A stretch of 64,000 nucleotides of DNA from an uncultured Ruminococcus sp. (GCA_964558485.1 CAZLED010000002.1:16853-80852), one strand, 5' to 3'; numbered from the stretch's first letter, positions 30,128 through 59,673 are shown. Program-made: numbers and translations. Notes: generated by a model not told the origin, from the sequence alone.

Positions 30128-31243
30128 TTAAGGGTTTTCCGGATGCGGTGTATCTCCGATGAGACCGGCGTCATCCTGAGGTCGCATGGTATTCTTACTA
30201 TGCCATTTTTCCAGCACAGTCTCCACCTGCCGGATCAGCTGCGCTTTGTCTGGCATGTATAGCACATAGCGAGATGCAAAAATGTTGTTGGACAAACCAC
30301 CCAAGGCGTATTCCGCTGTAATGCTGTCCTTGTCAGTACAGAGAATGATGCCGATAGGAGGATTGTCGTTCGCATCGTTCACCTCTGATGCATAATAGTT
30401 CAGATACATATTGATCTGCCCGGCAGCTTCCGGCGTCAACTTTGTTGTTTTCAGCTCGATCAGCACGTAGGCACGAAGGATCTTATTATAAAATACCATG
30501 TCTACATAGTAATGGGTGTTGTGTAGCGTTACCCGTTGCTGTGTGCCCACGAACATAAAACCACGTCCCAGTTCCAGCAGAAACTTCTCGATTTGCTGTA
30601 CCAATGCCCGTTCCAGATCACTTTCTAAGAAAGGTCTATCCTCGGGCAGACCCAGAAATTCAAATACATACGGATCCCGGATCATGTCCACTGGCGTAGA
30701 AATTTCATTGCCGTGCAGTGCCAAGGATAGTACCTGTTCTTTGTTTGAATCTCCACGGGACAAAAGCAGACGTTCAAATAAGGAGCTGTCGATCTGCCGT
30801 TTCAACTCCCGTACGGACCAGTTTGCCTGGATCGCTTCTTTTTCGTAAAAGCTGCGTCGGTCTGCATCAGAGATGGACAAAAGCTCACAGTAATGCGACC
30901 AACTCAATTTGCCAGACACTGTCTGGCATTTCGAATAGGTCAAATAGAATTGTCGCATATATTGCAGATTGGCTCTTGAGAATCCTTTGCCAAATTCCTG
31001 CGTCAAAGCTTTGGAAAGGGCCTTTAGGGTTTGCTTGCCGTAGTCGGCCCGTTCCGGACAGGTCTGTTCATGCTCACAGATAATGCGGCCGATATGCCAA
31101 TAGGTATGCAAAAGCTCGTGATTGACCTGCCGAGCCACATTGCTGCGTGCCGCAAGCAAAAGGCTTCCGATCTCCTGCACGATAGAGGTGATCTCTTCTG
31201 TAGGTTCTGAATGCTTATATTCCAAATGTGTACTGCCTTTCAT
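30128..31243 (-). CDS. YhcG-like PDDEXK nuclease domain protein (DUF1016)
   Basis: From ORF 30128..31300, with the start moved to MKGSTHLEYK (ATG 31243). N-terminal helical YhcG domain (LLHTYWHIGRII), then the nuclease core YYVDMVFYNKILRAYVLIELKTTKL (D...E-L-K). Confidence 0.8.
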   Translation of the reverse strand: MKGSTHLEYKHSEPTEEITSIVQEIGSLLLAARSNVARQVNHELLHTYWHIGRIICEHEQTCPERADYGKQTLKALSKALTQEFGKGFSRANLQYMRQFYLTYSKCQTVSGKLSWSHYCELLSISDADRRSFYEKEAIQANWSVRELKRQIDSSLFERLLLSRGDSNKEQVLSLALHGNEISTPVDMIRDPYVFEFLGLPEDRPFLESDLERALVQQIEKFLLELGRGFMFVGTQQRVTLHNTHYYVDMVFYNKILRAYVLIELKTTKLTPEAAGQINMYLNYYASEVNDANDNPPIGIILCTDKDSITAEYALGGLSNNIFASRYVLYMPDKAQLIRQVETVLEKWHSKNTMRPQDDAGLIGDTPHPENP

Positions 31244-31400
31244 CGGGTACTTTTCTAAGGCACCACCGCACAGTTCACGGCTAACGCCTTGATGGCACAT
31301 CTGCTTGCATCTTTTCGGCGCATCTGTACCATCAGAACTGTGCGGTGTCGCCTTCAGTGAAAATGGCGGCGTTATCTGCCCACGGATTTTCTTGCTTCCC

Positions 31401-32361
31401 TTACGAATTCAGCTTGTTGAAGCCGTCCAGCACTTCCTGCAGTGCGGTTTCCTGTGCGACCTTGTTGGAGGCAAGGAAGGAGGCGATGCTTTCGTTGCCC
31501 TTGCCCATTTCGGCATACAGGGCGTCACTGAACTTGGTGCCCACGATCTTGATCACGTAGGAGATGCTGTCGTGGATCAGGTCCAGCATAGCGGCGGATT
31601 CCTCGTCCCGTGCGGACTTGCCCTTCAGCATGGTGTCAAAGTAGGCCGGCAGCAGCTCCACACTGGAGTAATACGCCATTTCCTCCATGACCGTGCCGGC
31701 AAAGGTTTGGTCGCCAACGGTCACCGGTACAAGCAGTGCATGGGCATTGGGGCTGACGTTCCAGTATTTCTCCTGATCGACGCTGTACTTGGGAGAGGGC
31801 AGGATACCAAAGTCCGTGTCCATTTCCCGCATAGCAGCCGTGCTGGCCAGTGTACCGCCAAGCCTTGGTCAGGTCGATGGCAGGCATATCGTACAGGTCG
31901 ATGCAGTAGTTCTGTACCACCAGGCTCATGATGTTGGTCAGATCCACAAAGGTCATATGGGCAAAATCGTCCCCGGCTGCGATGTTGGATTTGATCTGGG
32001 ACAGGGTGCCTTCGTTGACGGTGATCACACAGCCCAGCTTTTCCTCCGTGCTGACACAGCGGTTGTACATGGCATCGTTCAGGGCATCCCCGGTGGTCTC
32101 CTCCGGATAGATGGCGGTGCTGACGTATTTGCCTTCGTTGTAGTAGCCGTTCAGGATCACATATTCCTGTCCGTTAAAATTGTCTGTGAACGCCGGCGGT
32201 ACACGAGTGGGATCGGTGGTTTCGACCGGTGCGGTGTCCTCCGTGCCCACTTGTTCGCCATTTGACGAATGCGTTTCCTTGGTGTCGCTTTCTCCGCAGG
32301 ACGGCAGAACGGAAGCACAGAGCAGTGCTGCCAAAAGTAATGGAAGGATATGTTTTTTCAT
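31401..32361 (-). pseudogene. Solute-binding lipoprotein paralogue 4 of 5, inactivated by an internal deletion plus frameshift
   Basis: The N-terminal part (MKKHILPLLLAALLCASVLPSCG ... AIDLTKAW) ends near 31869. The C-terminal part (GTLASTAAMREMDTDFGILPSPKY ... to the stop at 31401) resumes in another frame near 31866. Comparison with paralogue 3 puts about 160 codons, including the DGDG loop, as missing. Confidence 0.75.
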
Positions 32362-32743
32362 ACGAGATACTCCTTTTTCACCCAATGGGTCTGATTATAA
32401 AATACAGAGATAGAATAGCACATTCTCATGAACCGGAAAACGGATAGCGATGAACAAATTGTAAACATTGGGAGACTATCGTGTAGAAAAAACGCCGATC
32501 CCACAGAACCGACGCTTTCGGAAAATAGTTGCGATGGATAGCCGTGATCGTTGGGGAATAAAGGGCCTTGGTCTTCGTGGCAGCGTGGACGGTCTGTGCA
32601 AGTACCAGTGGTGATGCTCTATCGGAATGGTGCATAGGATGTCGCCTGCGTTGGGAAAACTACAGCAGGATGGCAGGGTACACAAAAGTTGGCTGGGAAA
32701 GGGGAACGCCCGCTTTTCCTATGACAGATTGCTGCATATTGGC

Positions 32744-32772
32744 TTGACGAAACCGGAAAAGCATGCTATAAT
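32744..32772 (+). promoter_or_regulatory. Near-consensus sigma-70 promoter of the ATPase/small-protein pair
   Basis: TTGACG (32744-32749), 17-nt spacer ending TGC (extended -10), TATAAT (32767-32772). Followed by a ~65-nt leader and SD AGAGGT. Confidence 0.65.
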
Positions 32773-32844
32773 ACTGATACTGCAAGGACGGGGGAACAAT
32801 ATAGCTGCGACCGAAAGAACGAGTTTAGAAAAAGAGGTACTGCC

Positions 32845-33870
32845 ATGCGATATGGAATAGATTCGCTTCAACTTGCCAATTTTGGACAGATCGGCACTGC
32901 TGCGTTTGACCATTTTTCCGGCATCAATCTGATCATTGGCGAGAACGGGACCGGAAAGACCTGCCTTTTGAAGGCCTTATATGCAGCAGTCCGTTCTATG
33001 GAAGAATATGAGCGGGGAGACGATGTGCGTTCTATTGGAGAGATCTTAGCCGAGAAACTGCGCTGGACCTTCCAGGTGGAGAAATTAGGAGATCTTGTGA
33101 CCAAAGGAGCTGCCGAGCCGCTGCAATTTTCCATGACGATGCGGGAGCAGAAATTTGTCTATCAGTTTGGGCAGGACTGCACCCGAAAGCTGACCAATAT
33201 ACAGCCGGTACAGCCAAAGGGTGGGAATTCTGTCTGCATCCCGGCGAAAGAGGTACTGTCGCTGTTTCCAGTCATTTTGAAATCCAGGGACGTAGATCGA
33301 TCCTTTGGCTTTGACGATACGTACTATGACCTTGCCCGTGCCTTACAAATACCGCCGACCCGTGGAAAAAACTATTCTGCCTTTTCCCAGTCCAGAAAGC
33401 TTGTGGCCGATGTGATCGATGGCAAGGTGGACTACGATACCGAAACAGGAAAATGGTTTTACAAAAACAGCCGGAACCAGAAATTTTCCATTGGGGCAAC
33501 GTCTGAGGGGGTCAAAAAGATCGCCATTATGGACAGGCTATTGGCAAACGGTTACTTAGACAAAAATTCGATCCTGTTCATCGATGAGCTCGAATCTGCT
33601 CTACACCCGGAGGCGATATGTAAATTTCTCGATATGATCGATACCATTTCTCGAAATATGGGCATCCAATTCTTTATCACGAGCCATTCCTATTTTGTGA
33701 TCAAAAAGCTGTATCTGCTTGCTCTGCAAAACGGTGGAAATGTCACCTGTATTTCTTTGAGCAAAGGAAATGCACCTGTGCTCTCCGATATGTCCCTTGG
33801 AATGCCAAAAAACTCCATCATAGATACCTCCATTCGCCTGTATGAGGAAGAGATCGATGAGGTACTGTGA
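32845..33870 (+). CDS. Soluble ABC/SMC-like ATPase (AAA_21 / COG1106-type)
   Basis: 341 aa. Walker A GENGTGKT near the N-terminus. Signature-like TSEGVKK, Walker B ILFIDELESALH and H-loop FFITSHS in the C-terminal third. No TM or substrate-binding domains. Confidence 0.8.
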   Translation: MRYGIDSLQLANFGQIGTAAFDHFSGINLIIGENGTGKTCLLKALYAAVRSMEEYERGDDVRSIGEILAEKLRWTFQVEKLGDLVTKGAAEPLQFSMTMREQKFVYQFGQDCTRKLTNIQPVQPKGGNSVCIPAKEVLSLFPVILKSRDVDRSFGFDDTYYDLARALQIPPTRGKNYSAFSQSRKLVADVIDGKVDYDTETGKWFYKNSRNQKFSIGATSEGVKKIAIMDRLLANGYLDKNSILFIDELESALHPEAICKFLDMIDTISRNMGIQFFITSHSYFVIKKLYLLALQNGGNVTCISLSKGNAPVLSDMSLGMPKNSIIDTSIRLYEEEIDEVL

Positions 33871-34400
33871 TGCAGAAGAAGATCATCATAGAATCGGGGA
33901 TGCAGTTTGGTCCATACGACAGGGACGATCTGTTTTCTATAGAGAAGAGCGACCAATATCTATCCTGTGATACGAAATCTGTATGTTCGTGCGAGTTTTT
34001 GCTGCGACACAAAGGGAAGCTGCTGTTTGTGGAAGCGAAGACCTCCTGTCCCAATTATGAAGGGAAGGATGCCTCTGCGGAAAAGAAAAAGAAATATGAT
34101 GCGTATGTTGACGAGATCACCAAAAAGATGCGGCATTCCCTCATGTTGTACGGTGCGATGCTGGCAGGTCGTCACACTATGGAAACGGTCGGCGAAAACA
34201 TCGTTAGATTGGATATGGCAAAAACAGAGATCGTCCTTGTGTTGGTCGTAAAGGATGCAGAAGCATCGTGGCTGGTTCCCTATGTGGATGTATTTCGAGA
34301 AAAGCTGCGTCCGGAGATGTGTATGTGGCATATTCGTTCCTTCATGGTGATAAACGAAGCTGCTGCCATACGTCGTGGACTCACAGAAGTACAACCATAA
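33870..34400 (+). CDS. 176-aa protein of unknown family; putative PD-(D/E)xK-fold nuclease
   Basis: The ATG overlaps the ATPase stop (TGATG at 33868-33872), with GAGGT 8 nt upstream. The motif SCEFLLRHKGKLLFVEAKTS fits the pattern of an acidic residue, a beta-hairpin, then E-x-K. The ORF track lists it from a GTG at 33867. Confidence 0.6.
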   Translation: MQKKIIIESGMQFGPYDRDDLFSIEKSDQYLSCDTKSVCSCEFLLRHKGKLLFVEAKTSCPNYEGKDASAEKKKKYDAYVDEITKKMRHSLMLYGAMLAGRHTMETVGENIVRLDMAKTEIVLVLVVKDAEASWLVPYVDVFREKLRPEMCMWHIRSFMVINEAAAIRRGLTEVQP

Positions 34401-36465: not shown

Positions 36466-37314
36466 TCACTTTGCCCTGACGCCTGCCAATGCTGCGCCGA
36501 TGACGGTACCGAAGCGGGCGTTTTCCGGGATCTGGAAGCGCATATCGAACATGGTGTTCAGCGTATCGAATACTTCCTTGGCGTAAGCGACGCTGGTCAG
36601 GTTGCCGGTCAGGACCACGTCCTTGATCTGGTAGTTCCGGGCCGCAAAGATGGAGACCATACCGATGGTTTCGAAGACCATATTCAAAAGCCCCTTGGCG
36701 ATATCGTTTTTGTTTGCCATATCGCTGACCTTGCCGAAGTTGGAAGCGGTCATGGTGTCGCCGAAGCCGGGCACGATGTCGTTCCGGGAGATGTCCTTGA
36801 TTTTCAGGTCCACATTGGACAGGAAGCCGTTTTCCGCCATCTTTTCAATGTGCTGGATATTTTCCAGACCTAAAAGCTTTTTGGACAGTCCCATGAGCGT
36901 ACCACCGCCGACGCCGGTGCCGCCCAGGTAGAGCGGATCGCTGTCTCTGGTGGCATAGACCAAGGCTGTACCGGTGCCGCAGCTGGTGATGATGGCACGG
37001 TCCAGGCCGGAAAGATAGAGACCGCCCAGCCCATTGGCACGGAATTCTTCGATCCGTTCAAAGGGCAGGTCATAGATGGGTTTGGTGATGTAGGTGGAGC
37101 CCACACCGGTGATCATGACCTTTTCGATGTCCGAAAGCGCCAGATCGTTGTTTACAAGAAATTTACCGAATGCGCCATAGATCGACGTAATGGGGTCGGT
37201 CGCACGCACGAACAGAGGCGCAATGAGCTGCCACTGTCCTTCCTTTATACCAAAGCCGACGATCTTGGTGGTGCTGCCACCGACGTCGATGCCGATAACG
37301 ATACCTGATGCCAT
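36466..37314 (-). CDS. coaW: Type II pantothenate kinase
   Basis: 282 aa. GIDVGGSTTKIV, SCGTGTAL, GGTGVGGGTLMGLSKKLL, DLKIKDI...PGFGDTMTASNFG and RFGTVIGAAL parallel the staphylococcal CoaW blocks (GIDAGGTLIKIV, VGTGTSL, GGIGTGGGMIQGL, DLKVRHIY...GDLTAANFG, AFSGAIGAL). Confidence 0.75.
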   Translation of the reverse strand: MASGIVIGIDVGGSTTKIVGFGIKEGQWQLIAPLFVRATDPITSIYGAFGKFLVNNDLALSDIEKVMITGVGSTYITKPIYDLPFERIEEFRANGLGGLYLSGLDRAIITSCGTGTALVYATRDSDPLYLGGTGVGGGTLMGLSKKLLGLENIQHIEKMAENGFLSNVDLKIKDISRNDIVPGFGDTMTASNFGKVSDMANKNDIAKGLLNMVFETIGMVSIFAARNYQIKDVVLTGNLTSVAYAKEVFDTLNTMFDMRFQIPENARFGTVIGAALAGVRAK

Positions 37315-37349
37315 AACAATTTTTGATCCTTTCCCACAATGTATGGTTC

Positions 37350-37379
37350 AGTATACCACAGATGGGGGTCAGTTGTCAA
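37350..37379 (-). promoter_or_regulatory. Putative coaW promoter
   Basis: On the minus strand: TTGACA (37379-37374), 18-nt spacer ending TGG, TATACT (37355-37350). Confidence 0.55.
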
Positions 37380-37491
37380 GAGGGTGTGTTGGGGGTAAGG
37401 GAGTTTATACTCCCTTTCTGCGGAACCCCGGTGGCTTTCAACGGGCGTTGGGCTTGTGATTCCATGGAGTTCTCCATGAGCCTTGGTTTTT

Positions 37492-37871
37492 CCGTTTTTG
37501 ATCAGGCTAACCGCAGGGGTACGGGGTGCAAATCGTTCGGGTTCTGGTGCATTCCGATATGGGGATCGTATGCGGTAAGAATTTGGTAAAACGAAAGTAG
37601 GGCGGGATGACCTACCCTTGGTATTCGTATCGCTCTTAGCTGACGACATCCCGCCGTCGATATTTTTGTATGCCCGGTATGGGTATCCGCCAAAACGAAC
37701 ATTTCACAATAGAAAATATTTTCGAAATACGATACGGATATCAACGCACTACATTACCCGTCGAATGATTTGGTGTTCCTTATTGGTATCCACCCAAACG
37801 TCCGTCCAGCACCAAACGATATTCCCAATGTAGCCTAACCGTCCTAATGCGGTTAGCCCAATCAAAAACGG
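37492..37871. repeat. 380-bp non-coding unit bounded by 23-nt inverted repeats (MITE-like, or a long-range RNA helix)
   Basis: CCGTTTTTGATCAGGCTAACCGC (37492-37514) against the reverse complement of 37849-37871, CCGTTTTTGATTGGGCTAACCGC: 21 of 23 match. The interior has no ORF and holds the stem GGGCGGGATG (37600-37609) / CATCCCGCC (37647-37655). Confidence 0.4.
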
Positions 37872-37976
37872 GTGTTTTAAGGCGTACCCCATTTATTGCC
37901 GAATGCCCTGCTTCCAGAGAAACCGTCTGTCAACTGAGGTAGTGCTTTTCGAGACGATTAATAGGGGATGGGAGGT

Positions 37977-38108
37977 CTCGGAGGGTAAGGGGGAACAAAC
38001 TGTCGAGGAAGTTTGATCTTCCCCCTTACCCTCTGAGTACTGCCTGTACAAGGCAGTCATTCCGAAACTCTTCGGAAAAAGAAACTGGGTGTCAGCTCAA
38101 CGCCAGTT
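37977..38108 (+). other. Four consecutive strong hairpins in a gene-free region; possible structured RNA, strand uncertain
   Basis: Arm CTCGGAGGGTAAGGGGGAACAAACT (37977-38001) pairs with AGTTTGATCTTCCCCCTTACCCTCTGAG (38010-38037), roughly 25 bp with one bulge and one G-T pair that is only a wobble on the plus strand. Then ACTGCCT/AGGCAGT, TTCCGAA/TTCGGAA and AACTGG/CCAGTT. Confidence 0.35.
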
Positions 38109-38262
38109 GAAGACGAAAAAACAAAGGATGTAGACAGCCCCCAATGCAGTTGGAAAAATGTGCGACCCTTGCAGAAAGTTAGGTTAAGGGCAACTTTGCT
38201 ACGAGCGAATGTTGGACGCCCTTGCCCCAAAAATAAACTACATGAAGAATGGAGAACAACCT

Positions 38263-39102
38263 ATGATCAAGAATACAGATACCCAAGGCCGCATGGCAGA
38301 GAAGGAGCTGTTCATTTTCGATATGGACGGCACCATTTACCTAGGCGGCAATCCCTTTCCCTTTGCCATCGACTTTATCAAAAAGCTGCGGGCCCATGGA
38401 AAACGGGTGATGTTTTTCACCAACAACGCCTCCCACAATCCGGGGTTCTATCTGGAAAAGCTGACCCGGCTGGGGTATGAACCGACTGCCGAGGAAATCT
38501 GCACCTCCGGCAACGTGACCACCGCTTTTCTGACCCGGAAGAGAGCCGGCAAAAAGGTCTATCTGCTGGGCACGCCGGAGCTGTGGGACCAGATGCACGA
38601 AGGCGGCGTAGCGCTGGTCTGTGACCGCAACGGCCGTCCTACCGAAGAAAAGGCAGACATCGTAGTCACCAGCTTTGACACCACGCTGGACTACGAAAAA
38701 ATGACCGTGACCTGTGATTTTGTGCGGTATGGTGCGGAGTATCTCTCCACCCACCCGGACTTCAACTGCCCCACTGAGACCGGCTTCATTCCGGACAGCG
38801 GCGCCATTGCTGCCTTTGTGACCGCTTCCACTGGTGTGAGCCCCACCTATTTTGGCAAGCCCTATCCGGAGACGGTGGACATGATCGAGGAGATCACCGG
38901 TCTGGACAGAAGCAAAATGTGCATCTTTGGCGACCGGCTGTACACGGACATTGCCACAGGCAGACGGCATGGGATCCTGTCCTGCCTGGTGCTGACCGGG
39001 GAGACCACCGAAGCAGACGTGGATGCTGCCGATGAAGCCGACAAGCCGGATCTGCTGTACGATTCTCTGGCAGAGGTGGACGAGACGATCTTTGGCAAAT
39101 AA
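38263..39102 (+). CDS. HAD-IIA family hydrolase (NagD-like sugar-phosphate/nucleotide phosphatase)
   Basis: Start moved to MIKNTDT (ATG 38263, GGAGAACAACCT upstream). Motif I FIFDMDGTIY, motif II FFTNNAS, motif IV IFGDRLYTDI. Confidence 0.85.
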   Translation: MIKNTDTQGRMAEKELFIFDMDGTIYLGGNPFPFAIDFIKKLRAHGKRVMFFTNNASHNPGFYLEKLTRLGYEPTAEEICTSGNVTTAFLTRKRAGKKVYLLGTPELWDQMHEGGVALVCDRNGRPTEEKADIVVTSFDTTLDYEKMTVTCDFVRYGAEYLSTHPDFNCPTETGFIPDSGAIAAFVTASTGVSPTYFGKPYPETVDMIEEITGLDRSKMCIFGDRLYTDIATGRRHGILSCLVLTGETTEADVDAADEADKPDLLYDSLAEVDETIFGK

Positions 39103-58452: not shown

Positions 58453-58477
58453 AAAAGGGGCTTGTCCCCTTTTTTTG
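58452..58477 (+). terminator. Rho-independent terminator
   Basis: AAAAAGGGGC-ttgt-CCCCTTTTTTT immediately after the stop codon. Confidence 0.75.
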
Positions 58478-58744
58478 TGCAAATCCCCACGTGGTGGGTT
58501 GTACTGACGCACGGCGCACAGTGTACGGAGTGGTGGTTTCCATATAGAAAAACGTGATTCCCATAAAGAAATCCGACAAAACCATACGTCAGCCACTACT
58601 CCGACCGTTTTGTGTGAAGCCGAACATACGCCACAGACCAACGTTGCACCCACCAGACACCATACGTCTTGCACCCCGTAGCCCTGCGGCAGCGTGATCA
58701 AAAATTGAAAACCAGCCCAACACCAGTGTGAAAAATTTTTTTGA

Positions 58745-58792
58745 AATACTTTTCCAAAAAGTATTGACAAATCCCCACGGGTGTGGTATCAT
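58745..58792 (+). promoter_or_regulatory. Promoter of the amino-acid ABC operon with an overlapping palindromic operator candidate
   Basis: TTGACA (58764-58769), 17-nt spacer ending TGG, TATCAT (58787-58792). The perfect palindrome AATACTTTT-cca-AAAAGTATT (58745-58765) abuts and overlaps the -35. Confidence 0.55.
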
Positions 58793-58902
58793 AGTATTAC
58801 TTTAGTGCGATAAAGCATTAAAACACTGAAAACCAACAAGGAAACGTGAAAATGTGTGTGTCGCTTCCTTGCAAACTTTGATAGGCTCAAGGAGAATATA
58901 TC

Positions 58903-59673
58903 ATGAAAAAACTGCTTTCTTGTATTTTGGCTGGTATGCTGCTGGCTTGCTGCACCTCTTGTGGTGGCAATACCGCTACCATTGCAGACGTGCAGGCTGT
59001 GAAGGACGCCGGCAAAATGGTCATCGGGATCACCGAATATGCACCCATGAACTACCAGGAAGACGGCAAGTGGACCGGCTTTGATACCGAGTTCGCAGAA
59101 GCCGTTTGCGCCAAGCTGGGCGTTACCGCTGAATTCATCGTTATCGACTGGGACAACAAGATCCTGGAGCTGGACTCCGGTTCTATCGACGCCGTCTGGA
59201 ACGGTATGACCATCACCGATGAAGTCCGCAACGGTATGGAAGTTTCCGATGCCTATGTGAAGAACGCACAGGTCGTTGTGCTCAAGGATGCCGCAAACTA
59301 TGCCGACGTGGCTTCCGTGTCTGAACTGTCCTTCGCTGTAGAAGCCGGTTCTGCCGGAGAAGCTGTTGCCGCCGATTCCGGTTTTGCCAATGTTACCGCC
59401 GTTGTTGACCAGGCTACCGCACTGATGGAAGTGGCCTCCGGTTCCGTGGATGCCTGCATCATCGACATCACCATGGCAAACGCTATGACCGGCGAAGGCA
59501 CCAGCTATCCCGATCTGGGCTACAGCCTGGAGCTGAGCACCGAAGAATACGGCATCGGCTTCCGCAAGGGCTCTGACCTGGCCGCCGAAGTCAACGCCAT
59601 CATGGTGGAGCTGACCGCCGATGGTACCCTGCCTGCTCTGGCTGCCAAGTACAACCTGACGCTGGCGAAGTAA
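58903..59673 (+). CDS. Polar amino acid ABC transporter substrate-binding lipoprotein (family 3)
   Basis: SD AAGGAG. Lipobox LLACCTSCGG. Blocks GITEYAPMNYQ, GFDTEFA and DAVWNGMTIT typical of family-3 SBPs. Confidence 0.9.
   Translation: MKKLLSCILAGMLLACCTSCGGNTATIADVQAVKDAGKMVIGITEYAPMNYQEDGKWTGFDTEFAEAVCAKLGVTAEFIVIDWDNKILELDSGSIDAVWNGMTITDEVRNGMEVSDAYVKNAQVVVLKDAANYADVASVSELSFAVEAGSAGEAVAADSGFANVTAVVDQATALMEVASGSVDACIIDITMANAMTGEGTSYPDLGYSLELSTEEYGIGFRKGSDLAAEVNAIMVELTADGTLPALAAKYNLTLAK

Follow-up and report, generated by a model that had tools for sequence, protein, structure and literature searches.

A probable MITE/foldback-like insertion in the coaW-HAD spacer of an uncultured Oscillospiraceae bacterium from the gut

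What occupies the largest intergenic gap in an otherwise densely coding stretch of a gut bacterial genome: mobile DNA, a structured RNA, or the leader of the adjacent operon? The question is raised by a 64,000-nt stretch of DNA (GCA_964558485.1, CAZLED010000002.1:16853-80852; hereafter the window, with positions counted from its first nucleotide) from an uncultured Oscillospiraceae bacterium of the animal/ruminant gut, whose nearest genomes in GTDB are metagenome-assembled genomes labelled “uncultured Ruminococcus sp.,” “Clostridia bacterium,” and “Candidatus Flemingiibacterium.” In this window, coaW (36466-37314, minus strand; Pfam Fumble/BcrAD_BadFG) and a gene for a HAD hydrolase (38263-39102, plus strand), the latter followed by pit (PHO4) and a PhoU-like gene, are separated by 948 nt. 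An initial annotation, made from the sequence alone, had described most of this gap as a gene-free, heavily structured block in a tightly packed genome and had proposed either a relic resembling a miniature inverted-repeat transposable element (MITE) together with a large structured non-coding RNA (ncRNA), or a long regulatory leader of the HAD and pit genes. The description of a tightly packed genome is roughly right, with the next largest gaps at ~450 and 408 nt, and the block is gene-free: none of its 7 open reading frames (ORFs) has a Pfam match even at E <= 1, and gene callers leave it empty on public contigs from the same strain.

Here, we describe the comparative analysis of this block. 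With a rough probability of 0.6, we read positions 37389-38228 as a recent, nested or mosaic, non-autonomous, non-coding inverted-repeat insertion of MITE/foldback-like character in the spacer that separates the coaW promoter from the divergent HAD-pit-phoU promoter. In kind, the insert seems to be ordinary selfish DNA and not a conserved RNA or a regulatory leader. The MITE-like half of the earlier proposal is thus supported and extended, by an outer insert of ~840 nt, its absence from sister species, a second copy 21 kb away, and a rearranged version in another strain, whereas the ncRNA and leader half is not.

An insert missing from sister species

When GTDB species representatives were searched with the HAD protein, 54 related loci were obtained. 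In the closest species (CoaW 96-98.5% identical, HAD 96% where measured), the coaW-HAD spacer is just 194-200 nt long. Loci L013 and L014 (HAD 96%, CoaW 97-98.5% identical) keep the same divergent gene order with a spacer of this length, and local alignment finds homology with the window solely at 37315-37388 and 38228-38265, that is, at the two edges of the gap; therefore, ~840 nt in the window replace ~80 nt of ancestral spacer. The insert is also missing from L090-L092, with their 200-nt spacer, such that it is polymorphic in presence between the same two genes across L013, L014, and L090-L092. Nothing similar to the insert was found at any of the 54 related loci. When the block was examined as a possible cis-acting leader or riboswitch of HAD-pit, the 15 relatives with the divergent arrangement proved to have unrelated spacers of 76-412 nt; in L016-L018 and more distant genomes, the spacers measure 76-234 nt and are again unrelated in sequence. 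The insert and its ends are as follows.

37389-38228, no strand: lineage-specific non-coding insert of ~840 nt, replacing ~80 nt of the ancestral 194-200 nt spacer
37392-37404, plus strand: outer terminal inverted repeat, left copy, GGGGTAAGGGAGT, matching the reverse complement of 38216-38228 at 11/13 positions
38216-38228, minus strand: outer terminal inverted repeat, right copy, ACGCCCTTGCCCC (plus-strand letters), at the insert boundary

Both 13-nt copies of the outer repeat sit at the boundaries that the comparison with L013 and L014 sets independently. The insert would thus have been gained after the split from the L013/L014 lineage, as an outer element bounded by GGGGTAAGGGAGT that would carry within it a 380-nt MITE-like unit and a 75-nt hairpin.

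In two relatives with HAD proteins 90-91% identical to that of the window, a gene for a hydrophobic, membrane-like protein of 77-85 aa lies at the site of the repeat block (L015:3721-3951 and L036:5710-5964). Because these loci hold a small gene there instead, the coaW-HAD spacer appears to be a hot spot at which small insertions occur. Their gene also lends some plausibility to a decayed gene or prophage fragment in which the inverted repeats would be immobile leftovers, as does the GC content of the block (0.43-0.52, below that of the neighbouring genes). Such decay is nonetheless very improbable: tblastn with the small membrane protein of L015 and L036 found no residual similarity in the block, no frame gives a Pfam signal, the comparisons with phages and plasmids were negative, the terminal inverted repeat sits at the exact boundaries of the insert, and a homologous module at a second locus of the window points to a repeat family.

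The promoters on either side of the insert were located by a consensus scan.

37350-37379, minus strand: coaW promoter, TTGACA-18-TG-TATACT, 11/12, conserved in L013 and L014
38131-38159, plus strand: candidate promoter of HAD, pit, and phoU, TAGACA-17-TG-AAAAAT, 9/12, a consensus match only

The coaW promoter is the ancestral one, and on the left side the homology with the sister species ends next to it, at 37388. The site at 38131-38159 is the best candidate for HAD and lies in the portion of the insert that is common to both strain alleles described below, past the end of the variable block. Many relatives carry coaW and HAD on one strand, with coaW immediately before HAD; this operon-like order was observed in the more distant Oscillospiraceae loci L021-L026, L029, L032-L034, L038, L039, L041, L053, L059, and L061. 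The divergent arrangement in the window is a derived inversion. An origin of replication was considered as well, given two TATCCAC-like boxes in the block, but was rejected, as there is neither a skew switch nor a dnaA context.

Nested inverted repeats and the two-stranded fold

All coordinates that the initial annotation gave for elements of the block proved exact on re-examination. The 23-nt inverted repeat at 37492-37514/37849-37871 (21/23 matches) and the 380-nt unit that it bounds are real, and the repeat extends to 33 nt at 82% identity (27/33; 37492-37524/37839-37871). A further inverted repeat, missing from the earlier list, was found at 37437-37454/38094-38111. The elements inside the insert, including two modules delimited by comparison with other copies, are these.

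37492-37871, no strand: 380-nt unit with imperfect 33-nt terminal inverted repeats (TIRs; CCGTTTTTGATYRGGCTAACCGCA...) at 37492-37524 and 37839-37871
37970-38044, no strand: long hairpin H1, 75 nt, with 26-nt arms at 37970-37995 and 38019-38044, 85% identical
38040-38108, no strand: short hairpins H2 (38040-38057), H3 (38061-38079), and H4 (38084-38108, weak)
37437-37454, plus strand: left arm of the intermediate inverted repeat, TTCAACGGGCGTTGGGCT, score 12, matching positions 790-773 of L079
38094-38111, minus strand: right arm of the intermediate inverted repeat, containing the single-nucleotide polymorphism (SNP) 38097 T/C
37485-37549, plus strand: “A-end” module including the left 33-nt TIR, also found at 58714-58650 (minus) and at L079 550-494 (minus), 80-86% identity
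37717-38079, plus strand: “B unit,” comprising interior, right TIR, spacer, and H1-H3, with a 72%-identical, reverse-complemented paralogue at L079 7-396

Inverted repeats were scored without gaps and compared with the best repeat in each of 100 dinucleotide shuffles (mean 9.35, maximum 13). The 33-nt repeat scores 18, the H1 hairpin 16, and the 37437-37454/38094-38111 repeat 12, and all three are above dinucleotide-shuffle expectation. Other structures of the initial annotation are present but fare less well by this measure: the interior GC-rich stem (9 bp, 37601-37609/37647-37655) scores 9, which is chance level, and the 7-bp alternative pairings of CTAACCG at 37507 and 37835 with CGGTTAG at 37850 are, taken alone, indistinguishable from chance. 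Among the four consecutive hairpins, H1-H3 fold as described, but H4 has just a 5-bp stem; with the C allele of 38097, it reads as a weak terminator-like site on the minus strand. H1 folds with 19 + 6 bp, and the H1-H3 block has a DNA dG of -37.7 (z = -8.9). A motif said to occur three times does so, as GGGTAAGGG/CCCTTACCC at 37393, 37983, and 38023, with no further occurrence in the 64 kb; the arms of H1 carry GGGTAAGGG, the same motif as the outer terminal inverted repeat.

This wealth of structure could point to a functional RNA, either a species-specific structured ncRNA or a long 5' leader of HAD-pit-phoU in which the 33-bp long-range helix and H1-H4 would act as RNA. The block does fold very stably (-327 kcal/mol on the plus strand, z = -5.9), it lies directly upstream of HAD on the same strand, and the L079 paralogue retains the H1-H3 architecture, with double-sided changes at 3 of the predicted pairs. 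We nevertheless consider a functional RNA quite improbable. On the antisense strand, the fold is as stable or more so (z = -7.1); two strands that fold about equally well are the mark of DNA palindromes and give no support for a strand-specific RNA. The Rfam scan proposed in the initial annotation identified no known RNA family: Rfam 15 gave 0 matches at the gathering score across the whole window, and at E <= 10 nothing credible in either intergenic region that harbours the repeats, the only matches in the block being spurious miRNA-precursor models that hit the H1 hairpin on both strands. The block is missing upstream of the orthologous HAD in all relatives, even 96% identical ones, and differs radically in L079 although the flanks are 97-100% identical. 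With the best HAD promoter candidate located past the variable segment, most of the structure probably falls outside the HAD leader. As for the double-sided changes, they come from two sequences only, both paralogous palindromes, and the A-end module, which has a weak RNA fold (-20 kcal/mol for 146 nt), adds one such change, again from two sequences and uninformative. Neither the large ncRNA nor the long HAD/pit leader is thus supported, by Rfam, by conservation across the 54 loci, or by a fold that is strand-symmetric. The initial annotation had itself held that a unique, poorly conserved region would speak against its ncRNA, and on conservation this is what was found. Under the insertion reading, the hairpins would be DNA palindromes that are either needed for mobility or tolerated, and not functional RNA.

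A second copy and rearranged strain alleles

The gap at 58453-58902, the second largest of the window, holds a further member of the same repeat family, between a gene for an AMP-binding enzyme with its terminator and the promoter of a gene for an amino-acid ABC transporter substrate-binding protein.

58571-58714, minus strand: partial second copy (long A-end module), nhmmer E = 1e-43, with its end at a synteny breakpoint

The A end at 58714-58650 (minus strand) is 80% identical to 37484-37549, and the two loci have in common an exact 21-mer, CCGCAGGGNTACGGGGTGCAA, with two occurrences in the window against 0.01 expected. With the longer A end of L079, the copy shares 83% identity over 123 nt (58582-58704 and L079 425-547). 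In L070-L073, homology with the window starts at 58715/58732, where the module ends, and a different gene lies upstream of that point; in L075, three extra genes separate the same two neighbours. Since the homology of relatives begins where the module ends and L075 has extra genes there, the module marks a rearrangement junction. At both copies in the window, the A end faces a -35 box; 105 nt lie between them at the coaW-HAD locus and 50 nt at this one.

Two side observations concern this second locus. Copies of an exact 12-nt direct repeat, CAAATCCCCACG, lie at 58481 and, within the spacer of the downstream promoter, at 58769; this repeat was considered as a target-site duplication (TSD) and rejected, as 54 nt of ancestral promoter-upstream DNA separate the end of the element from the right copy. 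The substrate-binding protein of L070-L073 (P0001) is 99% identical in amino acids and ~87% in nucleotides to the product of 58903-59673; the divergence of the gene is almost purely synonymous, and its upstream neighbour differs.

At the first locus, public contigs with an identical HAD or CoaW are 99.97-100% identical to the window over the block, save for position 38097. This T/C site is the sole SNP over 3.5 kb among same-strain contigs, and its C allele raises the complementarity of the 37437/38094 inverted repeat from 16/18 to 17/18. A markedly different allele is found in L079, from the same sample series and with a HAD protein identical at 276/279 positions. Its positions 585-941 match window 37905-38262 at ~97-100%, and positions 7-584 are a different mosaic in place of window 37391-37905. 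There, relative to HAD, the unit bounded by inverted repeats is reversed. Its “B” end (C..TTTTTGATTGGGCTAACCGCATTAGGACGG), identical at 31/32 positions to the right TIR of the window, occupies 242-274 on the left, and its “A” end (CCGTTTTTGATCAGGCTGCCGCAGGGTTACGGGGTGCA...), longer than that of the window, occupies 550-425 on the right; the two units have non-homologous middles. Inverted arms of ~225-253 nt flank the L079 unit (7-259 versus 534-758, in blocks of 72-94% identity), and the left arm of L079 is a 72%-identical, reverse-complemented paralogue of window 37717-38079 that keeps the H1-H2-H3 architecture, with a different H1 stem sequence and an extra hairpin in the loop. From these comparisons, 37437-37454 is probably what survives of a longer left arm, still whole in L079, and the window allele looks like a derivative shorn of most of that arm, save this remnant.

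Further variation was seen in assemblies of the region: L011 represents a third variant from 37578 onwards, and of two further contigs, one stops at 37575 and another starts at 37574. Contigs L003-L006 and L009, from independent samples, start or stop at 37947, 38036-38040, and 38061, on the margins of the long hairpin, which could reflect a drop in coverage at the hairpin or local heterogeneity.

The opposite orientations in the window and L079 bring to mind an inverton, in which a recombinase encoded elsewhere would flip the segment between the 33-nt inverted repeats and thereby switch an internal promoter between coaW and HAD-pit-phoU. Invertons are phase-variable invertible promoters (PMC10028968, PMC11892184), and the locus resembles them as an intergenic segment of a few hundred base pairs, flanked by inverted repeats, in a gut bacterium, with both orientations among strains. 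The particulars agree up to a point: ~314 nt of intergenic DNA are enclosed by 33-nt repeats of 82% identity between divergent genes, the B-end TIR of the reversed L079 unit is nearly unchanged, there is an internal promoter-like site at 37744-37715 (minus strand), and several metagenome contigs break within the region. The two orientations are not, however, flip states of one sequence; they are divergent sequences in different flanks, with cores 72-86% identical, a non-homologous middle of ~100-170 nt, and different left flanks. In addition, the repeat arms are imperfect (27/33), no invertase lies nearby and no recombinase domain was found in the window proteins scanned or in neighbouring gene tables, the internal promoter is weak (9/12) and poorly conserved in L079, and the contig breaks cluster at the strong hairpin, where a coverage drop may explain them. 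We regard an inverton as quite unlikely.

As in this block, the modules of the intergenic palindromic REP/BIME and ERIC elements of Enterobacteria form mosaics, alternate in orientation, and differ among strains, and the block could be a REP/BIME-like cluster, in which domesticated, immobile palindromes serve as insulators, terminators, or mRNA stabilisers between convergent or divergent units. The hairpins are maintained in paralogues, both window copies lie just upstream of a -35 box, and H4 is a weak minus-strand terminator in one allele, all of which fits. REP/BIME units are short (20-40 nt) palindromes present in hundreds of copies and associated with the RAYT transposase. By comparison, the modules here are much longer (60-400 nt), the host is a Firmicute, in the ~76 kb examined no RAYT-type gene was seen and the copies came to two loci, with no sign of hundreds, and no strong hairpin is followed by a T-run on the strand of the incoming gene. 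A domesticated cluster is therefore unlikely.

Hallmarks of mobility and what the insertion would mean

How well the insertion reading stands depends on the hallmarks of mobile repeats. Bacterial MITEs include Correia/CREE of Neisseria, RUP of Streptococcus pneumoniae, and Nezha of cyanobacteria. The block resembles them as a small (0.1-0.8 kb), non-coding element with imperfect TIRs and long hairpins on either strand that is intergenic, often near promoters, present or absent among close relatives, and frequently nested. TIRs are present at two levels, as the 33-nt repeats at 82% and as the outer 13-nt repeat with 11/13 matches at the insert boundaries, and the units of 380 nt and ~840 nt lack Pfam matches and called genes. 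It differs from MITEs in that no TSD is demonstrable, two loci are seen in ~76 kb, no parent insertion sequence with matching TIRs was identified, and the TIRs in L079 run on into inverted arms of ~250 nt. These arms are closer to foldback or long-TIR elements, which have been described mainly in eukaryotes: the L079 allele is a long imperfect palindrome, with arms of ~225-253 nt (72-94% identical in blocks) around a core of ~274 nt, the arms being themselves made of sub-hairpins. In contrast to foldback elements, the window allele has lost most of its left arm, and its mobility is putative.

Several results weigh against a mobile element. The flanks of the 380-nt unit (GGTTTTT versus GTGTTTT) agree at 5/7 positions only, and no clean TSD was found for the outer element either; for the latter, there is no clean empty site because ~80 nt of ancestral spacer were replaced. 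The flanks of the L079 unit are inverted and not direct. Neither a transposase nor a recombinase was detected among the proteins scanned in the window or in a further ~12 kb next to it, and within the ~76 kb of genome examined, copies amount to two loci plus strain alleles. An exact scan with the 21-mer matched 0 viral contigs and 1 JGI metagenome sequence, a chance match in unrelated high-GC coding DNA, and blastn in distant mode found no plasmid match and, in the phage collection, only a 31-nt chance match to a Flavobacterium phage. The retention of the H1-H3 fold in a 72%-identical paralogue also fits selection on a functional RNA or DNA structure.

Other searches for copies were similarly sparse. 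Comparison of all modules by nhmmer and blastn with related loci totalling ~0.76 Mb recovered nothing beyond same-strain contigs, L079, and the second locus of the window; the exact TIR pattern had 0 viral matches, and an exact scan with a 16-mer of the hairpin gave 2 matches, probably by chance. One lineage may harbour more: contigs L086-L089 (P0132 lineage, CoaW 274/282 identical; positions 1-110), from four independent samples, stop 132 or 182 nt upstream of coaW, and in 3/4 samples the break is at exactly 182 nt. The sequence at which these contigs break off is 92% identical over 26 nt to window 58495-58520. Although the match is short, this suggests a repeat-induced assembly break and hence a multicopy repeat in that genome. 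Among the papers searched, none pairs MITEs with Oscillospiraceae.

Taken as an insertion, the modules would belong to a dispersed repeat family, spread and reshuffled by a transposase or recombinase acting in trans as well as by recombination between copies. Such elements might persist here because an insertion between two promoters that face away from each other does no harm. As a possible side effect, the promoters have been pushed ~750 nt apart, and the insert may supply the HAD promoter.

Elsewhere in the window, some genes in 30128-34400 have a third-position GC of 0.53-0.54, against ~0.7 in most clearly coding ORFs. This stretch includes a YhcG/DUF1016 PDDEXK nuclease gene (30128-31300) and an AAA_15/AAA_21 ATPase gene (32845-33870) that overlaps the gene for a 177-aa protein with no Pfam match (33867-34400); the ATPase and the 177-aa protein are conserved as a pair in the relatives L086 and L090, and the stretch may contain a defence-type gene pair.

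If the insertion reading is correct, the block represents an uncatalogued non-autonomous repeat family in an uncultured lineage of ruminant-gut Oscillospiraceae. The locus marks strain-level structural variation and may explain assembly breaks in several metagenomes, and it counsels caution against calling ncRNAs from fold stability alone. No new biological question would be opened by this unless the block is a recombination or inversion cassette, in which long-armed inverted-repeat modules target DNA just upstream of -35 boxes and are flipped or exchanged between copies, a reading that we hold to be a long shot. Were it true, related strains would differ in the promoter-upstream architecture of coaW and of the HAD-pit-phoU phosphate operon, and uncultured Oscillospiraceae would possess an undescribed mechanism of phase or strain variation, a DNA switch tied to phosphate uptake and coenzyme A biosynthesis.

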